Assembly (NCBI GenBank): GCA_965199955.1
Contig: CBDATQ010000002.1
Coordinates: 517,694 to 581,693, forward strand
Length of the DNA stretch: 64,000 nucleotides
Source of the DNA: Spirochaetia bacterium
Lineage (GTDB): Bacteria; Spirochaetota; Spirochaetia; SZUA-6; Bin103
Reading direction: 5' to 3'
Every line of letters starts with the position of its first letter. The stretch's first letter is position 1. Position numbers and translations under genes: made by a program. The notes beneath the pieces are model-generated. The model did no database searches. It had not been told where the DNA came from and saw only the letters and a list, made by a program, of their open reading frames with translations. This document shows positions 6,283 through 56,740 of this stretch, one piece after another.

Positions 6283-6450
6283 GTGAATCTCTCGTAACTT
6301 CATTGACAGAAATTAGTTGCAAGGTGATCTGCGTGCTGATTGGCGTCGTTTCGTGTCCATGTAGATGGTGGTGAATAGCGGCGAGATACATGCTATTTGA
6401 TCTTGACATATCGTGATTTGTGTGCATGCTGTTGCCACAGATCGGTAGTC

Positions 6451-18932: not shown

Positions 18933-19063
18933 GGTGTTCCTCCAAGGGTGGCTTCGTGTCGTCGAAGACGGAAAGTATTCGAGCGCAAGCCGGTTGGAAT
19001 CAAGGGAGTGGTGCGCCCTGTCGGCTGCTTGAGCGCCGACGGCTCCGGGTCGAGAATAGGCCG

Positions 19064-20614
19064 ATGATCAGGCGCAGGCTGCCAATCGGCATGCAAACCT
19101 TCCGCACGCTGCGGGAGGCGAATGCCTACTACGTCGACAAGACGCCGTACATCCGCCGGCTGCTGGACGAGGGCACGCACTACTTCCTGTCGCGTCCGCG
19201 GCGGTTCGGCAAGAGCCTGTTCCTGGACACGCTGAAGGAGGTCTTCCAGGGCAACGAGGAGCTGTTCGAAGGGCTCTACATCCACGATCACCACGACTGG
19301 TCGAAGCGCCACCCGGTGGTTCGGCTGAGCTTCGGCGGCGGGAACTTCAAGGATCCCGACCTGCTGGAGGCCAACGTCATGGAGCAGCTCGCCGCCGCCG
19401 AACGGCGGATGGGGGTGGTCCCCGAGTACCTGACGGCGCCGGGCCGCTTCGCCTTTCTCCTGGAAGCCCTGCACGGGCAGGCGGGACGGCGGGTCGCGGT
19501 GCTGGTGGACGAGTACGACAAGCCGATCCTGGACGCGCTGGTGGACGCGCCGGACGTGGCTCGCGCCAACCGGGACTTCCTGCGCGGGCTGTACGGGGTG
19601 ATCAAGGACTGCGACGCGCACGTTCGGTTCACGTTTCTTACCGGGATCAGCAAGTTCTCGAAGGTGAACCTGTTCTCGCAACTGAACAACCTCACCGACC
19701 TCACGCTGGATCCGGTCTACTCGTCGATCTGCGGCTACACCGAAGCCGACCTGGACACGGTGTTGTCGCCGGAGCTCGAGGGGCTGGACCGCGAGCGGGT
19801 GCGCGAGTGGTACAACGGCTATAGCTGGCTGGGCGCCGAGAAGGTGTACAACCCGTACGACGTGCTGCTGTTGCTGCGCCGCCGCCGGTTCGCGGCCCAT
19901 TGGTTCGAGACCGGCACCCCGGCGTTTCTGGTGGATACTCTGTTCGAGCGCCAAGTGGCGTCGGTGTCTCTGGACCAGACCGTGAGCACTGAGGAACTGT
20001 TATCGACGTTCGATGTGGGAAAGATCGGCACGGAGGCGCTGCTGTTCCAGACCGGCTATCTGACGATCACCGGAGAAGAGGAGCTGGGAGGAGAACCGCT
20101 GTATCGGCTGGGCTACCCAAATCGGGAGGTGCGCCAGAGCCTGAACCGGGTACTGCTGAGTCAACTCGTGCAGGACGTGGAACAGCAGACGGCGAACAGC
20201 ATGCGGCTGCAACGCCTGCTTGCCGCGCACGACAGCGCGGGGCTGCAGGAGCTGTTCCACGCGTTCTTCGCGAGCATTCCCTACGAGTGGCACACGAGCA
20301 ACGACATCGCCAATTACGAGGGCTACTACGCGAGCGTGTTCTACTCGTATTTCGCGGCGCTGGGGTACGAGATCGTCGTGGAGGAGTCGAGCAGCCACGG
20401 CCGCCTGGACATGGCGGTGCGCACCGCCGGGCACGTGTACCTGTTCGAGTTCAAGGTGGTGGAGATGGCGCCGCGGGGGTCGGCGCTCGCCCAGTTGCAG
20501 GAGCGGGACTACGCGGCCAGGTACCGGGGTGCAGGCGAGCCGATCCACCTGATCGGGGTGGAGTTCAGCCGCGAGACGCGCAACGTCACGGCATTCCAGG
20601 TGGCCGACGGCTGA
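19064..20614 (+). CDS. AAA-ATPase-like / PD-(D/E)XK (DUF1703-type) family protein
   Basis: N-terminus MIRRRLPIGMQTFRTLREANAYYVDKTPYIRRLLDEGTHYFLSRPRRFGKSLFL is the hallmark of the AAA-ATPase_like + PDDEXK_9 family. Start set at the internal M. Confidence 0.75.
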   Translation: MIRRRLPIGMQTFRTLREANAYYVDKTPYIRRLLDEGTHYFLSRPRRFGKSLFLDTLKEVFQGNEELFEGLYIHDHHDWSKRHPVVRLSFGGGNFKDPDLLEANVMEQLAAAERRMGVVPEYLTAPGRFAFLLEALHGQAGRRVAVLVDEYDKPILDALVDAPDVARANRDFLRGLYGVIKDCDAHVRFTFLTGISKFSKVNLFSQLNNLTDLTLDPVYSSICGYTEADLDTVLSPELEGLDRERVREWYNGYSWLGAEKVYNPYDVLLLLRRRRFAAHWFETGTPAFLVDTLFERQVASVSLDQTVSTEELLSTFDVGKIGTEALLFQTGYLTITGEEELGGEPLYRLGYPNREVRQSLNRVLLSQLVQDVEQQTANSMRLQRLLAAHDSAGLQELFHAFFASIPYEWHTSNDIANYEGYYASVFYSYFAALGYEIVVEESSSHGRLDMAVRTAGHVYLFEFKVVEMAPRGSALAQLQERDYAARYRGAGEPIHLIGVEFSRETRNVTAFQVADG

Positions 20615-27105: not shown

Positions 27106-27247
27106 GGTCGATATCCCGAACGCGTAGGAGAACCGTCCCCGATCAGTCCCTCTTCGAACCGGATGTGCTCCGCCATGTGTCGCCCCCTCAGCCCGCGTGC
27201 CGGTGTTGCCCGGACGGGCTCGCTGCCGGCAGACTGGGCCGCCCATC

Positions 27248-29335
27248 ATGAAGCGAATCGACCCGTGGGACACGCGTTTCGCCTTCTTCTGGTACAACGA
27301 CCAGGAAATCTTTCGCGACACCGATGCCGACCTGGCGCGCAAGGCGGAGGCGTTCGCCGACGTCGGCATAAACCACGTCATCACCTTCAGCGCCACCCAC
27401 TTCCGCTGGTCCTTTCGCCGCCACTGGGACCTGCTGACCGAGACGCTGGCGCGCGTGGTGACCGCCTGCCACGCCGCCGGCATTCGCGTGACCGAGCACC
27501 ACTCCAGCCATCTCACCCACAACCCGATCGACGAAGCGGGCGAACGCCAAGTGGAGCAGCGGCTCCGCACGCGCGGGTCGAGCCTGGCGTCGTGGCCCCA
27601 CCTGCGCGAGGACTGCGACGCCGATCCGGTGATCGACGGCGTGCGGCTGTCGAGCTGGCGGCAGATCGACGGCCGCACCGGAACGTGGGCACGCTCGGCC
27701 TACGCGGGCCGCTACGACTACCAGGGCTGGACGTTCTGCTTCAACAATCCGCACTATCGGCGCGCCTACCTGGCCTACCTGGAGACGCTCTACGCGACCG
27801 GCATCGACGGCATCATGACCGACGACGTCGAGTGGTTCGGCGCCGGTCACGCCTGCGCCTGCCCCATCTGTCGGCGCCTGTTCCGGGAGCAGACCGGTCA
27901 CGATCTCCCGGAACCCGGGCCCGCCTGGGAGCGCTGGCACGGAGACCATGGCGATCCGTCCTACGTCGCCTGGCTGCGTTTCCGTACGTCCTCCACCACG
28001 GCCTTCCACCAGGCGGTTTCCGACCACTACCGCGGGCTCGGCATCCGCCCGCTGCGGCCCAACTACAGCGAGCGGGTTCTCCACCGGGACCCCCACGGAA
28101 TATCGCTGGAGGACCTGCCCGACCTCGACTGGATCTTCAAGGAGAACGACTACTCCACGATCGTGCGCTACTCATGGTGCTCCTGGGCGATCGAGGCGGC
28201 CCACCGCTTCGCCGTCGGCCGCTGGCGCGGCATCCCGCCGATGAGCATGTTCTACCCCGACCGGCCCGACACCGTGCGCTTCTGCTGGGCGCTGGCCATG
28301 AGCTGGGGCCACCTGTACCTGGCGACGCCGGAGGGCCGGTCCCTGGAGCGTGCCGAGAAGCGGCTGCGCCGCTTCGAGGTCGCCCATCCCGAGTTGCTGC
28401 GCCGGGTGCGGCGGGTGGCGTCGCTGAGCTTCTACGACTCGCGCGCCACGCGCGACCTGTACGAGCACGCCGAAGAGCGAAGTGTCGCCGGGCTGATCGC
28501 CTGGACGCAGGCGTGCTACCGGCGGAACGTGCCCTTCGACCTGTTCCAGCCGGAGGAGCTCGACCGCCTGCCGCTCTACCGCGTAGTGGTCCTCAACGAG
28601 GCTGCCTTCCTCGGCGACGCGGAGCTCGATGCGCTGCGCGGGTTCGTGCACGCCGGCGGCACGCTGGTATGGACCGGCGCCACCGGCAGCAGGGACGAGA
28701 GCGGCGCCGCTCGCGACGCCCGGGCGCTCGGCCGCTGCTGGGAGATCGCCTCGTTCGCGGCGGTGCCGGACGGTGCGCCGCCGGTCACCGCCCGCATCGG
28801 CGCCGGCCGGCTGGTGCTGGTGGCCGGCGACTACGCGCTGGAGCCGGTGGAGGGGATCGCCCGCCCGGAGGATGGCGGCCGCGAGGCACGGGTGCCGTGG
28901 CAGCCTGTATCGGCGGCCCAGGAGCGCCTGCGGGATGAGCTGGTCGCGTTCCTGTGCGGCCTGGCGGGCGGTGCCGATCTGGAGATCGAGGACCTGCCCG
29001 CCGGCGTGCTGGCGACCGTCTTCGTCACCGAGTGCGGGGACTCCCTGGTGGTCCACCTCGTGAACGCGGCGCAGACCCTGGTGGTGGCGGTGGGAGGGAG
29101 CATCGGCCACGACGACCCCATCCCGTTTCCGCGGTTCGCAGGCGGGCCGGCACGCATCACGCTCCGCACGCCGGGGGCTCTAGCGGGGCGTCCGGTGCGC
29201 CAGGCGCGCTATCACGATCCGGACGTGGCGGCGGCCCGCCCCGTGGCGGCAGAGGCCGCGGCCGGGCGGGTCACGGTCACTCTGGATCCGTCCTGGATCG
29301 GCGCCTACGGACTGGTGCAGATCGAGCTCGACTGA
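27248..29335 (+). CDS. putative glycoside hydrolase (GHL6-like TIM barrel plus beta-galactosidase-trimerisation-like domain)
   Basis: 696-aa ORF from MKRIDPWDTRFAFFWYN. A central segment ...LRGFVHAGGTLVWTG... resembles the GH42 middle (class-I glutamine-amidotransferase-like) domain. Assignment tentative. Confidence 0.4.
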   Translation: MKRIDPWDTRFAFFWYNDQEIFRDTDADLARKAEAFADVGINHVITFSATHFRWSFRRHWDLLTETLARVVTACHAAGIRVTEHHSSHLTHNPIDEAGERQVEQRLRTRGSSLASWPHLREDCDADPVIDGVRLSSWRQIDGRTGTWARSAYAGRYDYQGWTFCFNNPHYRRAYLAYLETLYATGIDGIMTDDVEWFGAGHACACPICRRLFREQTGHDLPEPGPAWERWHGDHGDPSYVAWLRFRTSSTTAFHQAVSDHYRGLGIRPLRPNYSERVLHRDPHGISLEDLPDLDWIFKENDYSTIVRYSWCSWAIEAAHRFAVGRWRGIPPMSMFYPDRPDTVRFCWALAMSWGHLYLATPEGRSLERAEKRLRRFEVAHPELLRRVRRVASLSFYDSRATRDLYEHAEERSVAGLIAWTQACYRRNVPFDLFQPEELDRLPLYRVVVLNEAAFLGDAELDALRGFVHAGGTLVWTGATGSRDESGAARDARALGRCWEIASFAAVPDGAPPVTARIGAGRLVLVAGDYALEPVEGIARPEDGGREARVPWQPVSAAQERLRDELVAFLCGLAGGADLEIEDLPAGVLATVFVTECGDSLVVHLVNAAQTLVVAVGGSIGHDDPIPFPRFAGGPARITLRTPGALAGRPVRQARYHDPDVAAARPVAAEAAAGRVTVTLDPSWIGAYGLVQIELD

Positions 29336-29958
29336 GCGAGCCTGAAGCTGCGTCGGTGGATCGTCGACGGTCCGTGCCGCCGCAGCCGCTCCCGGTGCGC
29401 GCGCGTGGCGTACCCGAAGTGCGACTCGAAGCCGTAGCGGCCGTCGATGCGGGCGTACCGGGCCATCCAGCGGTCGCGCGCGGTCTTGGCCAGGATCGAT
29501 GCCGCCATGATCTCCGGGATGCGAGCGTCGCCGTCGATCTCGGCCCGGCAGGAGGCTCCCAGGGCCGGCGTGAAGCGCCCGTCGACCAGCACCAGGTCCG
29601 GCGCGAGGTTCAGCCCGCGGCAGGCGCGCAGCATCGCCAGCAGCGTCGCGTGATGGATGTTGATGCGGTCGATCTCCTCCGGCCACGCCCAGCCGACGGC
29701 CCACGCACGGGCGCGTCCGCGGATCAGCGGCGCCAGCTCTTCGCGGACCCGCGGGTCCACGACCTTGGAGTCATCCAGGCGGTCGTCCGGAAACGGGTCC
29801 CCCAGGATCACCGCCGCGGCGGTGACCGGTCCCGCCAGCGGTCCCCGGCCTGCCTCGTCGATGCCGCAGACGATCGTTCCCCCTCCCGGTTTGACGCTGA
29901 TTCGACCGCGATGGTAGCGTCGGGCGAGGCAAGCCCACAACGCGTGCGCTGTGCTCAC
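29305..29958 (-). CDS. rnhB: ribonuclease HII
   Basis: ...IVCGIDEAGRGPLAGPVTAAAVIL...DDSKVV... is the canonical RNase HII active site. Start is GTG at 29958, or TTG 18 nt downstream. Confidence 0.85.
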   Translation of the reverse strand: MSTAHALWACLARRYHRGRISVKPGGGTIVCGIDEAGRGPLAGPVTAAAVILGDPFPDDRLDDSKVVDPRVREELAPLIRGRARAWAVGWAWPEEIDRINIHHATLLAMLRACRGLNLAPDLVLVDGRFTPALGASCRAEIDGDARIPEIMAASILAKTARDRWMARYARIDGRYGFESHFGYATRAHRERLRRHGPSTIHRRSFRLAQSSSICTSP

Positions 29959-29961
29959 ATC

Positions 29962-32733
29962 ATGAGCGGGCAGCTACTGAAGCGGGTCGAACTCCTCGGC
30001 TTCAAGTCCTTTGCCGACCGCACGGTACTGGAGTTCGGCCCCGAAGTGTCCGCGCTGGTCGGACCGAACGGCTGCGGCAAGAGCAACATCGTTGACGCCA
30101 TCCGCTGGGCGCTGGGCGAGCAGGCGCCCCGCTCTCTGCGCGCCGAGCGCATGGAGGACGTGATCTTCGACGGCGCCGGCAGCCGGCGGTCGATGAGCGT
30201 GGCCGAGGTCACGCTGGTGTTCTCCAACGAGAACGGACGGTTGCCGATCGACTCCGCGGAGGTTGGCGTCAAGCGCCGCCTGTACCGCTCCGGCGAGAGC
30301 CAGTACTTCGTCAACAACACGCAGAGCCGGCTGCGCGACGTGCGCGAGGTGCTTGCCGATACCGGTCTTGCCACCTCCGGTTACGCATCGCTGGAACAGG
30401 GAAGGATCGACCGGATCCTCTCGGACAAGCCCGAGGAGCGTCGCGAGGTCTTCGAGGAGGCGGCCGGCATCCTGTCCTACCGCACCCGCGCCGTCGAAGC
30501 CGAGCGCGAGCTGAAACAGGCGGCGGCCAACGTGGCGCAGGTGGAGAACGTCCGGCGCGAGGTGCAGCGCCGTTACGAGACCCTGCGCGTGCAGTCGCAG
30601 GCTGCCGAGCGCTACCGCTCCCTGCGCGCGCAGGCCTTCGACGTCGAGCGCGACCAGGAACTGCTGCGTCTGCGCGCCCTGCGGGATCGCCGCCAGCGGA
30701 TCGAGAAGCGCCTTTCGCGGGAGACGCAGAACCGAGACGAGGTCCAGAACGAGATCGACGCGGCCGCGACCAGCGCGCGCAATCATCGGGCCGCTGTGGA
30801 GCGCCTGGAGGACGAGCGCGCTGCGTCCCAGGAACGCCTGTACGAGATCGCCACCGCCATGAGCGGGGCCGGGAGCGAAATACGGCTCGGCCGCGAGCGC
30901 GTCGATGAGCTGGAAGCGAGCATGCACTCGTACCACAGCCGCGACCAGGCGCTCGCGAAGCGCATCCGCGCCCGGGGAACCGAGGTCGAAACCGCTCGTG
31001 CCGGGCTGACCGAAGCGGAACGGGATGCCGCGGACGCGGAGTCGAAGGCGGCTGCCGACCGTGGAGATGCCGCGGCGGTGGGCGCGCAGATCGCCGAAAC
31101 GGAGCGGCGCATCGCCGATGCAGCCGCGCGGGCAGCATCGCACGAACAGCGCCTGGACGGCCTGCGCGACCAGCTTCGCAAGGTCACCGACGAGATCGTC
31201 ACCGAGCTCGATCAGCGGCTGGGCCAGGGGATGGAGTCCACCCCGTCCGCAGCGCTCGGCAACGATGTTGCCGAGTCGCTTGCGCGGTTCCGTCATGACC
31301 TCGGCCGGCTCGCGGTCTCGGCAGCGCGGGTGGACACCGAGGAACTCGCGCGGCGGCTCGGGGATCTGGTGGAGGCGGCCGAGGGTTTGATGAAGGGGTT
31401 CGCCCGCTATCGCGAGACCACCGGATCGCTGCTCGACGATCTGATCTCTTCGGAAGGGATCGTCACCCACAAGCGGGCGATCGACCGTGACATGGGAGAG
31501 ACCTTCTGGGCGATCGCCGAGCTCCGCAAGCAGAGCGAGGAGTTGCGGCGGGCCAATCGCGAGCGCGCCGAACGGCAGGGCCGGTTGCGCGACGCGGTGC
31601 AGGAGAGCCAGGTGGCCGCCGCGCGGGCGCAGGAACAGGCTGCCGCGCTGCGCACGCAGCTCGCCGCCGCGCAGCGGCAGCTCGACGAGCAGCGCCAGAT
31701 CCGCGCGGATCTGGCCTCGGAGGAACACCAGACCGCGGAGGCGATCCGGGCGCTGGCGTCCAGCACCTCCGATCGCGAGCGGGAGAAGGCGTTCCTGGAC
31801 CGGGAGCATGATCGGCTGCAGAGGGAGCTGGGCCGCGCCTCGGCGCAGCTCGCCGCGCATCGCCGCGAGATGGACCGGATCGACCAGGCCGCGCAGCAGC
31901 GCTCGGCGCGGCTGCGGCAGGCGCAGGAGACGCTGGAGCGAGTTCGGGTGGAGCTCGCCGAGGTGGAGGCGGAAGACAAGGCCATCCGCCACACCTTCGC
32001 GCAGACCCACTCCCAGCGCCTGGAAGAGCACTCCGAGCGGCTCGAGCAGATCGAGGCCACGCCGCGGGAGTTGCGCGACCGACTGGGCCGGCTACGGGAA
32101 CGGATCCGCGGCCTCGGGCAGATCAACCTGCTCGCTCCGGAGGAGTTCAAGGAGGTGGCCGAGCGCTACCGGTTCCTGACCGGGCAGCTCGAGGACCTGA
32201 GCCAGGCGCGCGCCGACCTGGAACGGGTGACCGAAGAGATCCAGCGCGAATCCGCCGAGCGGTTCGGAGCCTCCTTCCAGGCCATCGCCGGTGCGTTCCG
32301 GGACATCTTCCGCCGGCTGTTCGGCGGCGGCCGCGCCGAGTTGAAGCTCCGGAGTCAGGACGTGCTTGAGGCCGGCGTCGACATCCTGGCGCAGCCGCCC
32401 GGCCGCAAGCTGGAGAACGTGGGACTGTTGTCCGGAGGGGAGCGGTCGCTGACCGCGGTGGCGCTGATGTTCGCCATGTACTCGGTCAAGCCGTCACCGT
32501 TCTGCGTGCTCGACGAGCTGGACGCCGCGCTGGACGACGAGAACATCGGCCGCTTCGTCGGGCTCCTGGAAGAGTTCGCGCACGACTCTCAGTTCCTGAT
32601 CGTCACCCACAACAAGCGCACCATCGCCGCCGCCGCGAACCTGTACGGGGTTACCATGGAGGAGCCGGGCGTCTCCAAGCTGGTGACCCTGCGCATGCCG
32701 GAGCGCGCCGAGCGCGAACCGGTTCCGGCGTAG
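29962..32733 (+). CDS. smc: chromosome segregation protein SMC (short, 923-aa form)
   Basis: N-terminal MSGQLLKRVELLGFKSFADRT...VGPNGCGKSNIVDAIRWALGEQ (Walker A). C-terminal LSGGERSLTAVALMFA...FCVLDELDAALDDENI...VTHNKRTI...LYGVTM (signature and Walker B). Long coiled-coil arms in between. Upstream part of the 1259-aa ORF is junk. Confidence 0.85.
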   Translation: MSGQLLKRVELLGFKSFADRTVLEFGPEVSALVGPNGCGKSNIVDAIRWALGEQAPRSLRAERMEDVIFDGAGSRRSMSVAEVTLVFSNENGRLPIDSAEVGVKRRLYRSGESQYFVNNTQSRLRDVREVLADTGLATSGYASLEQGRIDRILSDKPEERREVFEEAAGILSYRTRAVEAERELKQAAANVAQVENVRREVQRRYETLRVQSQAAERYRSLRAQAFDVERDQELLRLRALRDRRQRIEKRLSRETQNRDEVQNEIDAAATSARNHRAAVERLEDERAASQERLYEIATAMSGAGSEIRLGRERVDELEASMHSYHSRDQALAKRIRARGTEVETARAGLTEAERDAADAESKAAADRGDAAAVGAQIAETERRIADAAARAASHEQRLDGLRDQLRKVTDEIVTELDQRLGQGMESTPSAALGNDVAESLARFRHDLGRLAVSAARVDTEELARRLGDLVEAAEGLMKGFARYRETTGSLLDDLISSEGIVTHKRAIDRDMGETFWAIAELRKQSEELRRANRERAERQGRLRDAVQESQVAAARAQEQAAALRTQLAAAQRQLDEQRQIRADLASEEHQTAEAIRALASSTSDREREKAFLDREHDRLQRELGRASAQLAAHRREMDRIDQAAQQRSARLRQAQETLERVRVELAEVEAEDKAIRHTFAQTHSQRLEEHSERLEQIEATPRELRDRLGRLRERIRGLGQINLLAPEEFKEVAERYRFLTGQLEDLSQARADLERVTEEIQRESAERFGASFQAIAGAFRDIFRRLFGGGRAELKLRSQDVLEAGVDILAQPPGRKLENVGLLSGGERSLTAVALMFAMYSVKPSPFCVLDELDAALDDENIGRFVGLLEEFAHDSQFLIVTHNKRTIAAAANLYGVTMEEPGVSKLVTLRMPERAEREPVPA

Positions 32734-32847: not shown

Positions 32848-34800
32848 ATGAGTGATCAGGAACGAAACGAACCGCAGGCGGAGGAATCGTCGGACTCGCA
32901 CGGACAGGAAGGGGCCGGACCGGAGCCCTCCCGGGAGAGGTTCTGGCAGGGCGTGAGCGTCCCTGACCTGGTCAAGCAGCGCATCGATGTCATCAAGGCG
33001 CAGCAGAGCCGCGGCCGCAAGCTGCTGATGGCGTTGCGCAAGTTCTACGCCATCCTGCCGATCGCGGCGTTCATCTATTTCTCCCTCACCAATCCGACAT
33101 TCCAGAACACGGTGCTCGCCATCCTGCAATTTGCGGTGCAGCTCCTGTTCGCGATCTTCTACGCGATTATCCAGTTCGTCGCCATTTTCTGGTTCATGGC
33201 CCGATCGAAGGTGGAGAAGGTCCGGCCCACCGACCCCAAGTCGATCACCTTCGACGACTACTGGGGGCAGCCCAACCTGAAGGCACTGGTCCGGCAATGG
33301 TTGGGCCTGCTGGCCGACCGCAGGGAGTTCGTGCAGATGGGCGGCCGCTACATCAACGGCCTGTTGCTGTACGGCCCACCGGGCACCGGCAAGACCATGC
33401 TCGCCAAGGCGATGGCGGGTGAGGCCGGGGTCGCGTTCATTTCCATAGAAGGCTCGGGATTCCGGGCGATGTTCGTGGGCGTGGACGTCCTGAAGATGAT
33501 CTGGTTTATCCGCAAGGCACGCAAGTACGCCCGCCGCTACGGCGCCTGCATCGCCTACATCGACGAGATCGACGCGGTCGGACAGTCGCGTGGCGGCGTC
33601 CAGGGAGACAACAGTACGTTCGCCGGCGGCGGGATGTTTGGTGGCGGAACCGGCGCCCTGACGCGGCTGCTCTACGAGATGGACGGCGTCGATCAGCGTT
33701 CCCTGAAGGAGCGAATGGTCGCCAAGCTCTACCAACTGCGCGGCAAGAAGCCGCCTGCGCGGAATTGGCACGTCCTGTTCATGGGCTCCACCAACCGCCC
33801 CGACGTGCTGGACCCGGCGCTGACGCGGCCGGGCCGCTTCGACCAGATGATCGAGGTGGGACTGCCGGACCGTTCCGGCCGTCGCGCCATCGTCGAGGGC
33901 TACCTGTCGACCATCCGCCACGACGACTCGGTCGACGTGGAGGCGATCGTGTCCAACACGCCCGGCGCCTCACCGGCGCAGATGATGGCGGCGCTGACCA
34001 AGGACACGGTACGCATCGCCCTGTTCGAGCACCGCAACGTGGTCACACAGCGCGACATCGACCGTGCGCTGATCCACCAGTTGGCGGGCATGGAGAACCC
34101 GATCGAGGAGATGGATCCGGAACAGCGCCGTTCCATCGCCGTGCACGAGGCCGGACACGCTGTGGTCGTGCACTACGTGCTCCCGGAGAAGCGGATCGGC
34201 CACCTGACGATCCTGGCGCGCGGCCAGACGCTCGGCTTCATGCTGCCGCTCGACGAGGTGGAGCAGTACTCGTATCCGCTGCGCCGGATCGTCGCCGACA
34301 TCATGGTCGCGTTGGGCGGACACGCGGCCGTGCGGATCGTGTACGGCGAGGAGTGGACCGGCGCCTACAGCGACTACCGTCAGGCGCGAGACCGTTTCCG
34401 ACATCTGTATTCACTCGGCTACTTCGGTCCTCCGACAGGATGGATTTCCAGCATGGCCGACGAGCTGGGCGCTCCGTCGGGCGCGCCGCCGCCGGAAGTC
34501 AACCGCCTCTGGCAGGATCTGGAGGATCGGACGGAGCGGTTGCTGCGCGATCATCGGGGCGAGTTGATGGCTCTTACCGACGCCCTGCTGGAGCGCAGCG
34601 AGCTCAATACTGGCGAAGTGCTGGAGCTCCTCGGGCCGAACGGTCACAACGGCACGAACGGCCACGGCCGGCCTCCGTCCGTGGCCGGCGGGCCGAGCGG
34701 GGCGCTGCCCGGCAACCTCTCCGCGCGTGACCTGATCGACGAGCCGTCGGACCCGCCGGATGACGGCGGCACCGAGCCGCCTGAGGAGCCCGCCCGGTAG
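32848..34800 (+). CDS. FtsH-like AAA+ zinc metalloprotease, divergent paralog
   Basis: Two N-terminal TM helices. Walker A GPPGTGKT, Walker B AYIDEIDAV, SRH TNRPDVLDPALTRPGRFD. M41 zinc motif HEAGHAVVV. Insert in the AAA lid and a Gly/Pro-rich acidic tail. Confidence 0.8.
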   Translation: MSDQERNEPQAEESSDSHGQEGAGPEPSRERFWQGVSVPDLVKQRIDVIKAQQSRGRKLLMALRKFYAILPIAAFIYFSLTNPTFQNTVLAILQFAVQLLFAIFYAIIQFVAIFWFMARSKVEKVRPTDPKSITFDDYWGQPNLKALVRQWLGLLADRREFVQMGGRYINGLLLYGPPGTGKTMLAKAMAGEAGVAFISIEGSGFRAMFVGVDVLKMIWFIRKARKYARRYGACIAYIDEIDAVGQSRGGVQGDNSTFAGGGMFGGGTGALTRLLYEMDGVDQRSLKERMVAKLYQLRGKKPPARNWHVLFMGSTNRPDVLDPALTRPGRFDQMIEVGLPDRSGRRAIVEGYLSTIRHDDSVDVEAIVSNTPGASPAQMMAALTKDTVRIALFEHRNVVTQRDIDRALIHQLAGMENPIEEMDPEQRRSIAVHEAGHAVVVHYVLPEKRIGHLTILARGQTLGFMLPLDEVEQYSYPLRRIVADIMVALGGHAAVRIVYGEEWTGAYSDYRQARDRFRHLYSLGYFGPPTGWISSMADELGAPSGAPPPEVNRLWQDLEDRTERLLRDHRGELMALTDALLERSELNTGEVLELLGPNGHNGTNGHGRPPSVAGGPSGALPGNLSARDLIDEPSDPPDDGGTEPPEEPAR

Positions 34801-34827
34801 GACCCGCGGCCGCGCGGACCGACGGCC

Positions 34828-36189
34828 CTATCGAATCGACCAGGACCCCAGGTCGCCGCGGGTGACGAAGCGCGGTTCGAGGTTGCCCGAAGCCGATCCC
34901 AGGAAGATGCCGGGGAAGCCGCCGCGCGCCACCGCGGAGAACACCAGCCAGTTGCCGTCCGGCGACCAGATGCTCCCGGAGCGCGTGTGCTGATCGAAGA
35001 ACTGCAGGGCGCCCAAGCTGCCGCGCGTGATCGGAAAGGTGGCGACCTTCCAGGATTCTCCCGAGCGGGCATCCATCACCCGCAGGTGCACGTAGATCTG
35101 CTCGGGGTCGGCGGCGAACACCGGCTCCACCACGAGCTGCTGGAGCTCCGCCGCGCTCACCGGTACCAGATAGGCGATCTGGCGGCTGTTGGGAGCCCAG
35201 AAGAAGGCGATGACCGTTGGCTCCTCCAGCTCCACCGAGCGCTCCAGCCGGCCCGGCACCAGCACGCGGAGCGTGCCGTCGGCCGAGAGCTGTGGCGTTG
35301 ACGACTCCATGATCGCGACGCGCCTCCCGTCGCGGGAGAAGCTGAAGAAGGCGCTGCCGGACACGGTCTTGAGCACGTCCAGGCCCGGACCCTCGATGTC
35401 CCGCAGCACAAGCTGGGCCGATCCCGACTCGCTGTCTACATACAGCATGCGTTCGCCGTCGGGAGACACCTGCGGCGACTGGAAGCGTGCTGGGCGCACG
35501 TTGAAGTTGCGCTTCCCGGTTGCGCCGCGGACGTCCAGCAGCGTGAGGCGACCGCCCGACGTCGTGCCGCCGCCGACGTGGGCCAGCATGAAACGGTTGC
35601 CGGGGTCCCACGCCCAGTACAGTGGCAGCCCCGTGTCGAGCGGCTTGTAGCTCAGCTTGCCGGAGGGATCCATCAGGCCGAGCTCCATGCCGTCCTCCGC
35701 GGTGCGCTGGGACAGCACGCTGATCCAGCGGCTGTCCGGGGACCAGTACAGGTAGACCGGTGCGAGCTCGGCGCTCTCCCAGACCGCCTGTGGATTGCGC
35801 GAGCCTGAGTCGCTGGTGAGGATCGCCGCGTCGAGGCTGCCGTCGGTCTGCTGGTCGAAGCGGACGAAGGCGAGGCGGCGGCCCCGTGCCGACCAGGTCG
35901 GAGACGAGTACCAGCGGCGCACGCCTTCGCGGCTGCCGGCGTCATCGGTGAGCTGCGTGAGGCGTCCGCCGGTCTGGTCCGCCGTCGCGATGTTGCCGTC
36001 CAGAGCGATGAACGCGATCAGCCCCGACTTGCGCTCGAAGCGCTCCAGCAGGGAGTTCTGCGACATCTGCGCGCCCCGCACCGAGCAGGACACCAGCAGG
36101 GCGGCGGCCAGGGGGAGCAGCAGGAGCGCCTGCAGCGTGCGGCGTCCCGGTGGATGCGGCACTGGCGGCTTCAGGTTCGTCACTGCCAT
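34828..36189 (-). CDS. TolB-like PD40 beta-propeller lipoprotein
   Basis: Start at the internal ATG (MAVTNLKPP...LLLPLAAALLVSC lipobox). Repeated ...SPDG...-type PD40 motifs (WSPDSRW, VSPDGERM, WSPDGNW). The upstream 247 codons of the ORF are junk. Confidence 0.65.
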   Translation of the reverse strand: MAVTNLKPPVPHPPGRRTLQALLLLPLAAALLVSCSVRGAQMSQNSLLERFERKSGLIAFIALDGNIATADQTGGRLTQLTDDAGSREGVRRWYSSPTWSARGRRLAFVRFDQQTDGSLDAAILTSDSGSRNPQAVWESAELAPVYLYWSPDSRWISVLSQRTAEDGMELGLMDPSGKLSYKPLDTGLPLYWAWDPGNRFMLAHVGGGTTSGGRLTLLDVRGATGKRNFNVRPARFQSPQVSPDGERMLYVDSESGSAQLVLRDIEGPGLDVLKTVSGSAFFSFSRDGRRVAIMESSTPQLSADGTLRVLVPGRLERSVELEEPTVIAFFWAPNSRQIAYLVPVSAAELQQLVVEPVFAADPEQIYVHLRVMDARSGESWKVATFPITRGSLGALQFFDQHTRSGSIWSPDGNWLVFSAVARGGFPGIFLGSASGNLEPRFVTRGDLGSWSIR

Positions 36190-37475
36190 GACCAGAACCC
36201 TATCAGCCCCGGCGCCATCTTGCGCGGCACCAGGTTGCCCTCGGCCCGCGCCACCATGATGGACGGACCCTCGTCGGTGAGCGCGGCGTACACGATGTTG
36301 CGGCTGTCCGGAGACCAGATCCGCGCGGCCTGACCGTACTGGTCGAACACGCGGATCACCGCCGCGAACTGCGGGGTGGGCACGAACGTATCGATGTCCA
36401 CCGACGATCGCCGCTCGCGGTCGTAGACGCGCAGTGCCAATACCAGGGTCTGGTCGCTGCCTTCGTTCAGCGACTGGATCGACGGGACGAAGTAGGCGAC
36501 GCGCCTGGAGTCCGGGGACCAGAAGAACGCGAACACGTCGTCCTCCTCGAGCATCGTCCCGGCACCGGTCGCGACGTCGCGCAAGTGCAGCCGGCTGACG
36601 ATCGATTCGACTTCCTGGCGGCGGGCGATGTAGCCGAGCGACGTGCCGTCGGGAGACCAGAGAAAGGTGACCGAGCCGCGGGCGGTGGCGATCAGCTCGC
36701 GACGATCCCGTTGCTCGGGGTGGGCGATGACCAGGTCGGTCTGGCCGCCGTCGGCGACAGTCGCCAGCACCACTCCCGAACCGTCGGGCGACCAGGCCGG
36801 GGTCTGGAACTCGGCGGGCTGAAGCGGAAGGCCGCTCTCGACCACGGCCGCGCCGACCTGCAGGAAGGACACCCGGCGGTCGGAGGTTCGGACCGACCCC
36901 GCGTGCACGGTCACGCCGGTGCTGTCGGGCGCCCATGCCCAGAACAGCGGCCGGCCGGCGTCCAGCGTCTGCACCGGAGCGGCGCTGCCCGGCTGCCAGC
37001 TCAGAAGCAGGAAGCCCCCGCCGCCCGATCCGGCCGTCAGGAAGCTGAGCTGGCGGCTGTCGGGCGACCAGTAGAGATTGGCCGGCAGCCGTCCGCCGGT
37101 GGAGACGGCCCGCGCGTCGCTGCCGTCGGCGCGGGCGGTGAGCACGCGGCCGGACGTGCGGCCCTGGAACGAGTCTATTCCCACGAACGCCACCCGCTTG
37201 CCGTCCGGCGACCAGATCGGGGTCTGGTAGATGCGCGCGGCGCTCTCCGACTGCCCGGCGTCGGTGGTGATCTCCTTCGTGGCGCCGCCGGCCTGATTGG
37301 CCACATAGATGTTGGCGTCGATGCCCATGTAGACGATCTTTCCGGACTTGCGCTCCAGGGCTCCCATCAGCGAGCTCTGCTCGCTGGTGTCGGGCAGCCG
37401 GCAGTCGACCAGCAGCGCGGCGCCGACCGCGGCGGCGATGAGGAGCGCGCCGCGAGCGACCGCCCTTCGTCTCAT
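36180..37475 (-). CDS. TolB-like PD40 beta-propeller lipoprotein (tandem paralog)
   Basis: Signal/lipobox RRRAVARGALLIAAAVGAALLVDC. PD40 motifs (WSPDGKR, WSPDSRQ, WSPDGSG, WSPDGTS, WSPDSRN). Same architecture as 34828..36189. Confidence 0.65.
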   Translation of the reverse strand: MRRRAVARGALLIAAAVGAALLVDCRLPDTSEQSSLMGALERKSGKIVYMGIDANIYVANQAGGATKEITTDAGQSESAARIYQTPIWSPDGKRVAFVGIDSFQGRTSGRVLTARADGSDARAVSTGGRLPANLYWSPDSRQLSFLTAGSGGGGFLLLSWQPGSAAPVQTLDAGRPLFWAWAPDSTGVTVHAGSVRTSDRRVSFLQVGAAVVESGLPLQPAEFQTPAWSPDGSGVVLATVADGGQTDLVIAHPEQRDRRELIATARGSVTFLWSPDGTSLGYIARRQEVESIVSRLHLRDVATGAGTMLEEDDVFAFFWSPDSRRVAYFVPSIQSLNEGSDQTLVLALRVYDRERRSSVDIDTFVPTPQFAAVIRVFDQYGQAARIWSPDSRNIVYAALTDEGPSIMVARAEGNLVPRKMAPGLIGFWSWQ

Positions 37476-37486
37476 CGGTACACCCC

Positions 37487-38812
37487 TCATCCGACGCCGC
37501 GCCGCAGCACGGTGAGCGCGGTGTTGCGGACCGGGTCGGTCTGCTCCGAGACCTCGTCCCAGTCCAGCGATGCCGGTACGTCCGGCCGCACTCCGTCGAT
37601 GCCGACCTCGCGGCCGGACGGTGACTGGTAGGCGCTGGTCATGACGGTCAGGCGGGAGCCGTCCGGGAGCACGAAGTCGACGAAGCTCTCCACGTTGCCG
37701 GGCGTCCGCAGGCCGACCACGGTGGCGCGGCGGCGCGCCTGCAGGGCGGCGGCCAGAACCTCGGGCAGCCCCTCGGTGTCCGGTCCGACCAGCACCACCA
37801 GCGGCACCGCCTGCGAACCGTTCAGGTCGTAGCCATCGACGGATATGAGCTGCGAGCCCTCGGCGGTGTAGATCTCACCATGGTCGCCGTCCGAGAACAG
37901 CGACAACAGCGGCACCAGCGGCCACCGCAGGCCGCTGGCGATGCGCAGGTCCAGGATAATGCCGCCGATGTCCCCGGCTTCCGCGAGCGCCTCGAGGATG
38001 CGGACCGTCTCCGTGACCAGGGAGTCGGAGGAAACGCGCGGGAACAGCAGGTAGCCGACGCGGCCCGGATCCAGGATGCCGTACTGGAGCGGATTCAGCA
38101 CCTCCGCGAGCTGCACGCGGCCGCGGATCACCTGCACGTCACGCGGCTCCCGGTCGACCGAGTTGACGCGCAGGATCACCGGCTGGTCGGCCGGTCCCCG
38201 GATGCGGGACACCGCATCCGGGCCCTCTTCCCGCCGCACCGGAATGCCGTTGACCGCCGTGACCGCCTCGTGGGGGCGCAGCCCGGATTGGTCGGCGGGA
38301 GATCCGGGCATCACCGACAGCAGGATGATGCGCGGCTCCGGGTTTTCGCGGTAGGCGACGTAGGCGCCGATCCCTTCATAGGCGGAAGGATCCTCCAGTT
38401 CTTGCTGGATGCGCTCCATGCGCGTCTCCCAGCGCGCGGCCAGCGGCGGCAGTTCGTCCAGCATCTGCCGGACCGTCGCCGGGAAGTCCTCGCGCGAAAG
38501 GAGGTTGACGATCACCGGCCGGTATCGCTCGCGCAACTCGTTCCAGGCGACTCCGTGCAGGTCGCCGTACACGTAGTGGTCACGCAGCAGGGTCCATATC
38601 TCGTCGAAGGTGCGGATCTGCAGGGAGGTGATCTGTTCCCGCTGCTCGGTGGGGTCCAGCACGGGCGCGAGATCCGTGTCGTCCGCGAATTCGCGGGTGC
38701 AGGCGGCGAGGATCGACAGCGCGGCGATCATCGCCAGGACAAACGTCGCCGTTGCCGGCGTCGCCATTTCCGGCCCGACGGGGGCCGGCGCGTTCCACAG
38801 CCGGGTTCGCAT
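37487..38812 (-). CDS. S41 (C-terminal processing peptidase)-like protein with PDZ domain; catalytic triad apparently substituted
   Basis: Lipoprotein-type signal (..FVLAMIAALSILAAC). PDZ segment ...LSVMPGSPADQSGLRPHEAVTAVNGIPV... S41 core ...IILDLRIASGLRWP...VVLVGPDTEGLPEVLAAALQARRRATVVGLRTPGNVESF... aligns to the ...[35 protein letters not shown]... block. The Ser, Asp and Lys positions read Gly, Ala and Asn. Confidence 0.65.
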   Translation of the reverse strand: MRTRLWNAPAPVGPEMATPATATFVLAMIAALSILAACTREFADDTDLAPVLDPTEQREQITSLQIRTFDEIWTLLRDHYVYGDLHGVAWNELRERYRPVIVNLLSREDFPATVRQMLDELPPLAARWETRMERIQQELEDPSAYEGIGAYVAYRENPEPRIILLSVMPGSPADQSGLRPHEAVTAVNGIPVRREEGPDAVSRIRGPADQPVILRVNSVDREPRDVQVIRGRVQLAEVLNPLQYGILDPGRVGYLLFPRVSSDSLVTETVRILEALAEAGDIGGIILDLRIASGLRWPLVPLLSLFSDGDHGEIYTAEGSQLISVDGYDLNGSQAVPLVVLVGPDTEGLPEVLAAALQARRRATVVGLRTPGNVESFVDFVLPDGSRLTVMTSAYQSPSGREVGIDGVRPDVPASLDWDEVSEQTDPVRNTALTVLRRGVG

Positions 38813-38862
38813 AGAGGAGCGCCACCTTAGCATGGCCGCCCTGGCCGCGGTGCCGAGTTTCA

Positions 38863-38891
38863 TTGACAGCTTAGAAAAGCGGTCGATATAT
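38863..38891 (+). promoter_or_regulatory. putative sigma70-type promoter for the ffh operon
   Basis: TTGACA (38863-38868), 17-nt spacer, ATATAT (38886-38891). ffh ATG at 38905 implies a leader of only ~6-8 nt. Confidence 0.35.
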
Positions 38892-38904
38892 TGCCTCCCT
38901 GCGC

Positions 38905-55265: not shown

Positions 55266-55738
55266 CGAAAGGAGGCGGGCCGGCCATCGCCGCGTCCGGT
55301 TCGGGCGTGGAGGAAAGTCCGGGCTCCGAAGAGCAGGGTGCCGGGTAATCCCCGGGCGTCCGCGCCAACGCGCGGGCGACAGACAGTGCAGCAGAGAACA
55401 GACCGCCGGGCAACCGTGCCGCAAGGGACGGCGCGTCCGGCAAGGGTGAAACGGTGGGGTAAGAGCCCACCACTCCGGCGGCGACGCCGGAGGTATGGCA
55501 AACCTCGCCCGGAGCAAAGCCAAGCAGCGGGTCGGGTTGCTCGCCGCATGAGGGTGGTCCCTCCGGGGATGCCGTCCTCGGGCCCGCGGGTAGGCTGCTC
55601 GAGTGCCGCGCCGGCGCCATCCGACGCCGCCGCGTGCGCCAGATGAATGATGGCCCGCCCCGGTGGCGGCCGGGACGCGCAGGCGACCCGGTACGCGTCG
55701 GAGTGAACAGAACCCGGCTTACGGGCCCGCCTCCTCTT
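55266..55738 (+). ncRNA. rnpB: RNase P RNA (bacterial type A)
   Basis: Universal motifs read directly: GGAGGAAAGTCCGGGCTCC (P4 5' strand), AGGGTGAAACGGTGGGGTAAGAGCCCACCA, GGTAGGCTGCTCGAG, AGATGAATGA, ACAGAACCCGGCTTA. The P1 helix pairs ggaggcgggcc (55271-55281) with gggcccgcctcc (55723-55734). ~470 nt. Confidence 0.85.
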
Positions 55739-55822
55739 ACTTCCTCCGGGGCGCCGAGATGGGGATACCAGCCGGCCGGGAGCCGCCGGCGGCGGACAGC
55801 GGGACGGCGTCGCGCACTGTTC

Positions 55823-56740
55823 GTGGTGCTACTCGTCGTCGGCGTCGTGGTCGCCGGTGTCCTGCTGCGGGCCGATCGCGCGGTCGCGGCCTGGCTCCGG
55901 CGTGACCGGGACGTCAACATGCGCGTGCTCGTCGGCGATGGGCGCTACGCAGAGGCGGTGGAGGCCGCGGAGTTGACGCTGGTCAGACGGCCGCTCGACG
56001 CGGAGGCGAACCTGATCCGCGGCGTTGCGTCCCTCTACGCGGCGATAGCCGACCTTGGATCAGCCGACCCGGGATCGGCCGACCCGAGGTCGGGCGGCGA
56101 CGGCGCACGCGGCGTGTCCGCCGCGGATCGCCTTTCGACGGCGATCGTGGCGCTGCGCCGGGCGCTGCTGAATTCGCGGATCGCCGTGGCGGAACCGGCC
56201 GCGCAATACGCGCTCGGCAAGGCCTATTTTCACCGCGGCTATTTCTACTACCGTCTTGCGGTGCACTACCTGGAGGGCTCGCTGGCGCTCGGCTACGATG
56301 GGGCAGACACCTACGAGTACCTGGGGCTGGCGTATACGGAGCTCGGCGACCCGCGCGGTCTGGAGTATTTCCGTCATGCGCTGACGCGGCGGCCGTCCGA
56401 CCTGCTGCATCTGAAGATGGCCACCATGCTGATGGATGAAGGCGACGTGCAGGGAGCGCGGCGAAACCTCATCCAGGCGATCGACCTCACCGACGACATC
56501 GCGATCGCGCAGCGGGCGCGGTACGAGCTGGGGGCTGTCCACCGTGCGCTTGGCGAACTGCCGCTGGCCGAAGAGCAGTACCGGGCGATCATCGCCGGCG
56601 ACGCGCGGGCCGCCGATGCCCACTTCTATCTGGGCGAGATCTACTCCCAGCAGGGCGACGCCGACCGGGCGCTCGCGGAGTGGCGCGCCGCGCGGGCGCT
56701 GGATCCGAACCACCGCCGCGCGATCGAACGCCTGCGATAG
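55823..56740 (+). CDS. TPR repeat protein with N-terminal transmembrane anchor
   Basis: Start set at a GTG after the rnpB 3' end. TM segment VVLLVVGVVVAGVLL. TPR-like repeats (...AQYALGKAYFHRGYFYY..., ...YEYLGLAYTELGDP..., ...AHFYLGEIYSQQGDADRALAEW...). Contains a 15-bp tandem repeat encoding GSADPGSADP. Confidence 0.5.
   Translation: MVLLVVGVVVAGVLLRADRAVAAWLRRDRDVNMRVLVGDGRYAEAVEAAELTLVRRPLDAEANLIRGVASLYAAIADLGSADPGSADPRSGGDGARGVSAADRLSTAIVALRRALLNSRIAVAEPAAQYALGKAYFHRGYFYYRLAVHYLEGSLALGYDGADTYEYLGLAYTELGDPRGLEYFRHALTRRPSDLLHLKMATMLMDEGDVQGARRNLIQAIDLTDDIAIAQRARYELGAVHRALGELPLAEEQYRAIIAGDARAADAHFYLGEIYSQQGDADRALAEWRAARALDPNHRRAIERLR

Follow-up and report, generated by a model that had tools for sequence, protein, structure and literature searches.

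A predicted S41-fold pseudoprotease and its propeller lipoprotein partners are genomically tied to a loop-less FtsH paralogue

Introduction

The C-terminal processing proteases of the S41 family (D1P, CtpA, CtpB, Prc/Tsp) combine an N-terminal helical domain, a PDZ domain and an S41 fold, and they are envelope proteins with lipoprotein partners such as NlpI and LbcA. Tricorn unites propellers, a C1 domain, a PDZ domain and an S41 core in one polypeptide that forms a cytosolic hexameric particle, while the eukaryotic IRBP keeps the S41 fold in tandem modules that are without catalytic residues. The membrane protease FtsH, in turn, is served by accessory factors that act at or outside the membrane and present substrates or gate access, among them HflK/C and the rhomboid YqgP, which has been described as an activity-independent FtsH adaptor (PMC7231995). 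Here we describe a locus in which elements of these systems meet. It lies in a stretch of 64,000 nucleotides (the window) from a genome recorded as that of a Spirochaetia bacterium (assembly GCA_965199955.1, contig CBDATQ010000002.1, positions 517,694 to 581,693), where three minus-strand genes, A, B and C, encode a predicted S41-fold pseudoprotease and two propeller lipoproteins beside a divergent, loop-less FtsH paralogue. Across distant clades, gene A and one propeller lipoprotein (two in the clade of the window) are genomically tied to this paralogue.

While pseudoenzymes, PDZ-protease adaptors and FtsH accessory factors are each familiar as such, their present combination is, to our knowledge, undescribed. 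Searches of the literature on inactive S41 homologues, tricorn, FtsH, PD40 and Chloroflexi found no description of the family or of the cassette, in agreement with an earlier note made from the letters of the window (the sequence-only reading), which had called the arrangement not a described system.

Results

The four genes under study, with the evidence on which each assignment is based, are as follows.

37487..38812, minus strand: gene A, predicted C1-PDZ-S41 pseudoprotease lipoprotein, 441 amino acids (Pfam, PDB and Foldseek matches, AlphaFold2 (AF2) model)
36180..37490, minus strand: gene B, seven-bladed PD40 propeller lipoprotein, 436 amino acids (Pfam PD40, AF2 model, seven WSPD repeats)
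34828..36189, minus strand: gene C, seven-bladed PD40 propeller lipoprotein and paralogue of B, 453 amino acids (Pfam PD40, identity between B and C)
32848..34800, plus strand: divergent membrane FtsH paralogue, 650 amino acids (Pfam AAA and Peptidase_M41, transmembrane (TM) analysis, linkage)

In public annotation the product of gene A is an 'S41 family peptidase' and the propeller is 'hypothetical'. The protein encoded by gene A matches Tricorn_C1 (7.6e-14), PDZ_6 (1.4e-9) and Peptidase_S41 (9.6e-16) in Pfam, and both the Pfam matches to PDZ_6 and Peptidase_S41 and the AF2 model show the PDZ domain inserted in the S41 fold. Its best PDB match is D1P (D1 protease; phmmer, 2.3e-25), and P. aeruginosa CtpA is matched at 2.4e-18. 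The model (predicted local distance difference test score, pLDDT, 87.8) has 1fc7 as its top Foldseek match (8.6e-27) and also matches 8sxe and 4c2c, with 5wql and 8sxe ranking among the top fold matches. Scores against the NCBIfam models for CtpA/B/C and prc are far under their cutoffs (112 bits vs 625, and 99.5 vs 218.6 for TIGR00225). Outside the former active site, gene A carries the following features.

38699..38710, minus strand: lipobox LAAC (Cys38), canonical
38459..38608, minus strand: Tricorn_C1-type helical domain, residues 69-118 (Pfam PF14684, 7.6e-14)
38363..38380, minus strand: PDZ carboxylate-binding loop YEGIGA, residues 145-150 (columns Y145-A150 invariant in alignment A1)

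Cys38 does not vary in alignment A1 and occurs in at least 90% of the sequences of alignment A3, and a lipobox was detected in 65 of 77 homologues.

The catalytic triad of CtpB consists of Ser309, Lys334 and Gln338 (PMC3808539). In C-terminal processing peptidases of the Ser/Lys type, the nucleophilic Ser is part of a G-x-S-A-S-x-x-E block, and the general-base Lys follows it by 25 residues. In gene A, the sites that correspond to the catalytic apparatus of the active relatives read as follows.

37769..37771, minus strand: codon of Gly348 at the position of the nucleophilic Ser (GPDTE[G]LPE; phmmer alignments to D1P and CtpA)
37694..37696, minus strand: codon of Asn373 at the position of the general-base Lys (TPG[N]VES; phmmer alignments to D1P and CtpA)
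37916..37951, minus strand: DLRIASGLRWPL, residues 288-299, the former DxRxNxGG oxyanion loop, now a family-specific DLRIA...WPL motif
38435..38446, minus strand: PLAA, residues 123-126, in the place of the D-x-H-S motif of the relatives, which is lost
37592..37615, minus strand: GREVGIDG, residues 400-407, in which Gly404 replaces a Glu conserved in 89% of Ser-type relatives

The Ser, the Lys, the Gln and the NxGG oxyanion loop of the C-terminal processing proteases are all replaced in A. The protein also differs from these relatives in being a predicted lipoprotein itself, with PD40 propellers rather than tetratricopeptide repeat (TPR) adaptors as partners. Phe377 occupies the +4 position of the Lys-orienting Gln (CtpB numbering as above), and the Asp position of Tsp aligns with Ala359. 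A hand alignment in the sequence-only reading had arrived at the same three substitutions (Ser to Gly, Asp to Ala, Lys to Asn), and the phmmer alignments place them at Gly348, Ala359 and Asn373. P. aeruginosa CtpA has LDPHS at the PLAA site of A, and the canonical relatives found in genomic loci (L043-L048) have DLRNNPGG where A has DLRIASGLRWPL.

The distribution of these changes was followed in 48 genomic loci, found with the YEGIGA loop as search pattern, and in 150 representatives at 50% identity from an exhaustive phmmer search. Gly stands at the Ser position in every homologue down to 38% identity, in 42 of 42 related genomic loci (L001-L042) and in 65 of the 150 representatives, that is, in all 65 of the Gly type. 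Lost from the Gly-type clade are the nucleophilic Ser (Gly348 in A), the NxGG loop (Ala292), the His/Ser motif (Ala125/Ala126) and the Glu at +56 (Gly404). The columns of the His motif are conserved in the Ser-type clade (H 0.97, S 0.94) and variable in the Gly-type clade; likewise, N292 (0.99) and G294 (1.00) are conserved in the former, compared with 0.45 in the latter. The Lys position is unconstrained in the Gly-type family, which has N, D, S, A, L, H, Y and rarely K there. The cleft residues T346, E351, D288 and R290 of A are invariant or nearly so, and they are also found in active relatives.

As judged from sequence, gene A thus encodes a pseudoprotease that keeps the fold and the PDZ peptide-binding loop and has lost the entire catalytic apparatus. 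The protein is predicted to be dead because the nucleophilic Ser (now Gly), the NxGG oxyanion loop, the LDPHS-type His and the conserved Glu are all gone, and not because of the change from Lys to Asn. The sequence-only reading, which had taken all three catalytic positions as substituted and the protein as inactive, is upheld on the inactivity; its Lys-to-Asn substitution does not stand as a family-specific change, since a Ser-bearing sister clade shares the Asn.

This sister clade of C1-PDZ-S41 proteins, encoded outside the window, accounts for 70 of the 150 representatives (P0276-P0386). In its members the Ser and the Asn at the 'Lys' position are both invariant, as is a Glu at +2 from that Asn; the NGGG loop is kept, and an LGDxHS motif and a Glu that lies 56 residues past the Ser are conserved. 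Given the invariant Asn, the change from Lys to Asn predates the pseudoprotease and did not kill it. The sister-clade profile matches tricorn (1k32) at 5.9e-18, and an end-of-alignment offset of 596 would put the +56 Glu on tricorn Glu1023 by offset arithmetic. The catalytic residues of tricorn are reportedly Ser965, His746 and Glu1023. In the place of these three, A has Gly348, Ala125 and Gly404 (the His and Glu equivalences being positional, by offset arithmetic). CPAF uses His105, Ser499 and Glu558 (PMC8787135). A Ser/His/Glu ancestry is plausible from these comparisons. The D-x-H-S motif of the sister clade was considered as proof of a Ser/His/Glu triad and rejected: LDPHS alone cannot prove a catalytic His, because the Ser/Lys protease CtpA carries it as well. 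The sister-clade proteins are probably active proteases with a site other than Ser/Lys, possibly one of the tricorn/CPAF kind, and as far as the literature shows they are uncharacterised.

Genes B and C are paralogues with 33-35% identity. Each matches Pfam PD40 (B, 1.6e-9; C, 1.3e-11) and contains seven WSPD-type repeats, which bears out the earlier description of two tandem paralogous PD40 propeller lipoproteins. In the AF2 model of B (pLDDT 86.6) seven four-stranded sheets form a closed propeller preceded by a short N-terminal helix only, and the best Foldseek matches are the propellers of S9 peptidases and TolB. No hydrolase domain was found in B or C in the Pfam scan. An orthologue of C is kept separately from B in L001-L018, and most Anaerolineae loci have a single propeller. 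The membrane anchors of the two proteins are predicted at the following sites.

37401-37412, minus strand: lipobox-like LVDC of B (Cys30), with an atypical Asp at -1
36085-36096, minus strand: lipobox LVSC of C (Cys35), canonical

Cys30 of B is conserved in at least 90% of homologues, most of which have canonical boxes; close relatives read LLGC. An Asp at -1 departs from the lipobox pattern [LVI][ASTVI][GAS]C and is unusual for recognition by Lgt/Lsp. The claim that all three proteins bear lipoboxes is correct for A and C, and for B it is correct as to the conserved Cys and not as to a canonical box. Predicted lipoprotein signal peptides place A, B and C outside the cytoplasm. We write 'extracytoplasmic' rather than 'periplasmic' because the taxonomy of the carriers rests on record labels.

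The propellers had also been called TolB-like. This is apt in so far as TolB, too, is a PD40-type envelope propeller and is among the best Foldseek and sequence matches. It does not extend to TolB identity: the propellers score 61 and 45 bits against TIGR02800 (TolB), vs a cutoff of 343, and TolB has six blades and an N-terminal alpha/beta domain, whereas the propellers here have seven blades and no such domain. No tol or pal gene is present in the window, and the suggestion of an anti-sigma/Tol-like module found no support, there being no anti-sigma or Tol genes nearby.

The gene that faces the cassette, overlooked by the sequence-only reading, is a conserved third partner. Its product has intact Walker A and B motifs (GPPGTGKT, DEID), the pore loop MFVG and HEAGH, the last kept in 120 of 120 homologues, and it scores 297 bits against TIGR01241, the FtsH equivalog, vs a cutoff of 600. 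Two adjacent TM segments (about residues 59-120) are parted by a loop of about eight residues, and this short loop holds across the 120 homologues. The paralogue is therefore without the extracytoplasmic domain of about 70 residues that canonical FtsH has between TM1 and TM2. In canonical FtsH, this periplasmic domain is the part that faces HflK/C.

The three families occur together in four arrangements among the 48 loci (arrowheads give the direction of each gene). That of the window is ffh< S41> B> C> FtsH<. In the second, FtsH> S41> B> C>, all genes share a strand and the gap measures about 25-90 bp; the third is S41> prop> FtsH<, and the fourth S41> FtsH> prop<. When the open reading frames (ORFs) of 21 loci from different clades were clustered all against all, the S41-like, propeller and FtsH-like families were the only ones common to the clades. 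Informative loci, defined by at least 4 kb on both sides, number 30; a propeller is present in 27 of them, and both a propeller and an FtsH-like gene in 25. When three FtsH-like homologues were looked up in the reverse direction, the cassette was found next to two of them. None of the three Ser-bearing relatives examined has a propeller or an FtsH-like partner, and the linkage is therefore specific to the dead clade. The sequence-only reading had proposed a check on whether the cassette with its substituted site is conserved in related genomes; it is, as seen from the Gly in L001-L042 and from the linked partners.

For a divergent subgroup of Gly-type S41 proteins (GPETRGASE; L024, L033 and L041), neither a propeller gene nor an FtsH-like gene lies within 6 kb. 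The WPL motif is missing in L024 and L033, and L041 gave no match to the DLR motif. The proteins of this subgroup may work alone, or their partners may be encoded elsewhere.

The close carriers (L001-L018) are labelled as Spirochaetia or Spirochaetaceae metagenome-assembled genomes of 4-7 Mb, and the carriers at 37-47% identity (L019-L042) as Anaerolineae, Ardenticatenaceae or Chloroflexota. The cassette may have passed from one phylum to another, or else some of the taxonomic labels are unreliable. In locus L053, a DDE transposase related to the DDE_Tnp_1 protein of the window lies near the cassette. One candidate for a fusion of the S41 and propeller proteins, a hypothetical protein of Geodia barretti (P0116), was rejected, as A and B overlap in different frames. 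It consists of the last 21% of an S41-like protein (89% identical) and 82% of propeller B (78% identical), and it looks like a chimeric gene model in eukaryotic style that was drawn, in a sponge assembly, across a contig from a bacterial symbiont.

Within the window, which has a G+C content of about 69%, the cassette is surrounded by housekeeping genes: SMC; ffh-rpsP-KH-rimM-trmD; dnaG and rpoD; and mreBC, PBP2 and rodA. Genes A and B overlap by their stop and start codons in the letters ATGA (37487-37490), and C starts at 36189 with an overlap of 10 nt with the end of B, so that the three tightly spaced minus-strand genes of the sequence-only reading are found as it described them. Genes A, B and C are translationally coupled and co-transcribed. 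The G+C content at third codon positions (GC3) is 0.89-0.90 in the cassette genes, and their ratio of nonsynonymous to synonymous substitution rates (dN/dS) is 0.12-0.26, with about 0.2 for A, measured against orthologues at 86-95% protein identity and in the same range as that of the neighbouring FtsH-like gene. Given this dN/dS and the high GC3, A, B and C are real genes under purifying selection. The intervals on either side of the cassette contain the following features.

38813..38904, no strand: divergent intergenic region between gene A and ffh
38863-38892, plus strand: promoter-like site for ffh, TTGACA-18-TATATT, 11 of 12 matches
34801..34827, no strand: spacer of 27 bp that separates the stop codons of two convergent genes, the FtsH-like gene and gene C

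An alternative upstream start of gene A is the ATG at 38863. We prefer the start at 38812 because the Prokaryotic Genome Annotation Pipeline (PGAP) gives products of 441 amino acids in close homologues, and because the ATG at 38863 falls within the promoter-like site of the divergent ffh gene. The 27-bp spacer holds a GC-rich palindrome, CCGCGGCCGCGCGG, with no T tract, and no canonical intrinsic terminator was found in it. Rfam and tRNA scans gave no match inside the A/B/C region.

Elsewhere in the window, several features are of separate interest. The first 28,000 positions (1-28000) are dense in genes for GFO/IDH/MocA oxidoreductases and for BNR/sialidase-like, apiosidase-like, GH109-like, TauD, UxuA-like and heparinase-like proteins, a pattern typical of glycan-degrading sponge symbionts, which fits the match of P0116 in a sponge assembly. 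Among these carbohydrate-active and oxidoreductase genes lies the DDE_Tnp_1 transposase ORF (594 amino acids, 6397-8181, plus strand). A predicted protein of the AAA-ATPase_like plus PDDEXK_9 nuclease family (552 amino acids) is encoded at 18956-20614 on the plus strand, an architecture often found in mobile or defence contexts. The SMC ORF (28954-32733, plus strand) has an N-terminal extension of about 340 amino acids, with SMC_N beginning at residue 342, and overlaps the ORF at 27197-29335; the real start is probably near 29975. A bacterial RNase P class A RNA is found at 55271-55738 on the plus strand (188 bits). Its length of 468 nt, vs 367 positions in the model, implies insertions of about 100 nt. 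The ORF of a TPR protein at 55634-56740 overlaps the 3' end of this RNA, and its true start must therefore lie further downstream.

Discussion

We are highly confident of the descriptive core of this analysis, a predicted pseudoprotease with an obligate propeller partner. As to its function we suggest, tentatively and short of calling it probable, that the products of the cassette form a non-catalytic extracytoplasmic receptor that is coupled to the FtsH paralogue and captures substrates for envelope protein turnover. The dead S41/PDZ protein and its propeller or propellers would sit at the outer face of the cytoplasmic membrane, where the PDZ domain and the former active-site cleft would take hold of exported or membrane proteins by their exposed C-termini or by unfolded stretches. 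The propeller would serve as a gate or scaffold, as it does in tricorn and the S9 peptidases. The actual unfolding and proteolysis would be left to the loop-less FtsH paralogue, which would lie in the same membrane and act on substrates that the receptor selects, presents or regulates. The YqgP-FtsH pair provides a precedent in which a protease-family protein acts as a non-catalytic FtsH adaptor (PMC7231995). The folds of YqgP and HflK/C, however, are unrelated to those of an S41/PDZ protein with propellers, and the coupling in our case is read from gene neighbourhood alone. In a more far-reaching form of the same idea, which we regard as unlikely, the dead S41/PDZ protein and its propellers would be the missing outer receptor domain of the FtsH paralogue, supplied in trans, and the whole would be a bacterial system resembling endoplasmic-reticulum-associated degradation. 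Damaged or orphan exported and membrane proteins would be recognised outside by their C-termini, then extracted and degraded inside in an ATP-dependent manner.

Several points weigh against the coupling of a receptor to FtsH. The tie between A/B/C and the paralogue is one of genomic linkage only. In the window itself the FtsH-like gene is convergent with the cassette and is not co-transcribed with it, and adjacency in this clade could partly reflect the housekeeping synteny SMC...ffh-rpsP-trmD. Among the 30 informative loci, the FtsH-like gene is absent within 6 kb in five and the propeller is absent in three. Conversely, no cassette lies near one of the FtsH-like homologues, which is 65% identical. 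In addition, FtsH normally engages its substrates from the cytoplasmic side, and the model would have to account for a hand-over from an external receptor.

The sequence-only reading had seen in the cassette a split tricorn with its protease module inactivated. Taken literally, A, B and C would be a stand-alone C1-PDZ-C2 and two-propeller scaffold or peptide-binding cage, to which the FtsH neighbour is incidental; we give this a low probability. The resemblance is real at the level of domains. Tricorn and the cassette have the same inventory of propellers, C1, PDZ and S41 core, with C1 before PDZ in both, and the Tricorn_C1 match of A, the precomputed Pfam Tricorn_2nd (E<=1e-5) and weak Tricorn_N matches on orthologous propellers, and the match of the Ser-type sister profile to 1k32, with its conserved Glu on E1023 by offset, all speak for some homology. 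In contrast, other signals speak against a tricorn origin. The best relatives of the S41 module in both sequence and fold are D1P, CtpA, CtpB and Prc, to which it is much closer than to tricorn; CPAF ranks 48, and tricorn does not appear in the top 50 for this module, nor among the best 60 PDB matches of profile A1, and likewise with Foldseek. The propellers look generic: they match propellers of S9 peptidases, of TolB and of the WD40 type at least as well as those of tricorn. The propeller profile retrieves S9 peptidases and TolB, and tricorn gives no match at E<=1e-3; similarity specific to tricorn was not seen in the PDB searches. The architectures differ too. Tricorn is one polypeptide with propellers of 6+7 blades, whereas the cassette is split into three in the order S41, propeller, propeller, with 7+7 blades here or a single propeller in the Anaerolineae loci; tricorn works in the cytosol, whereas the proteins of the cassette are predicted to be lipid-anchored, extracytoplasmic and catalytically dead. 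No fusion of a propeller with an S41 protein was found among the ten longest S41 representatives (which have tandem S41 or CBM/CARDB additions), and the split-tricorn view leaves the conserved FtsH-like partner unexplained. For us, then, 'split tricorn' describes an analogy backed by some signal of homology rather than an established origin.

An alternative that looks decidedly unlikely is that A regulates enzymes of the cell wall or envelope: it would inhibit or activate the peptidoglycan hydrolases and other proteins on which C-terminal processing proteases act, or serve as a decoy for them. Such a role would invert the adaptor logic of NlpI-Prc and LbcA-CtpA and resemble the dead LytM factors that activate amidases. 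The idea draws on the retained PDZ loop, on the predicted envelope location and on the fact that the active relatives Prc and CtpA are PDZ proteases dependent on lipoprotein adaptors (5wql and 8sxe in the Foldseek results above). However, no peptidoglycan hydrolase, amidase or TPR adaptor is conserved beside the cassette; the mreBC, PBP2 and rodA genes lie about 18 kb off and are unlinked across loci.

We attach little weight to the possibility that the dead S41 fold binds hydrophobic ligands in the manner of IRBP and, with the propeller, shuttles or senses them at the membrane surface. The family profile matches the IRBP modules strongly (9frx, 4.7e-29, in four stretches), and where the oxyanion loop used to be there is a new conserved Trp-Pro motif. 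But the Ser-type active relatives match IRBP more strongly still (4.4e-59), which argues for a shared fold and not a shared function. IRBP modules have no PDZ domain, whereas the PDZ peptide-binding loop is invariant here; IRBP has neither a propeller nor an FtsH partner, and its catalytic loss was independent. No lipid-metabolism genes are linked to the cassette. That A is still a hydrolase, through unconventional residues or only in complex with the propellers, is very improbable: purifying selection is strong and T346, E351, D288 and R290 persist, but these residues are also present in active relatives, so that none is a new nucleophile. In addition, 100% of members have Gly in the place of the nucleophile, there is no constraint on the base position, nothing is left of the oxyanion loop, the His or the Glu, and the propellers are without a hydrolase domain.

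Bacterial pseudoproteases with defined partners are rare, and how proteases of the FtsH type choose their substrates in the membrane and envelope is a long-standing question. The family offers a natural experiment, in which a PDZ-protease scaffold has been stripped of catalysis, as its sequence predicts, and yet is kept under selection and tied to an FtsH paralogue through several rearrangements. For the genomes of Chloroflexota and of sponge symbionts, the label 'S41 family peptidase' on these proteins is misleading in metabolic and proteolytic inventories.

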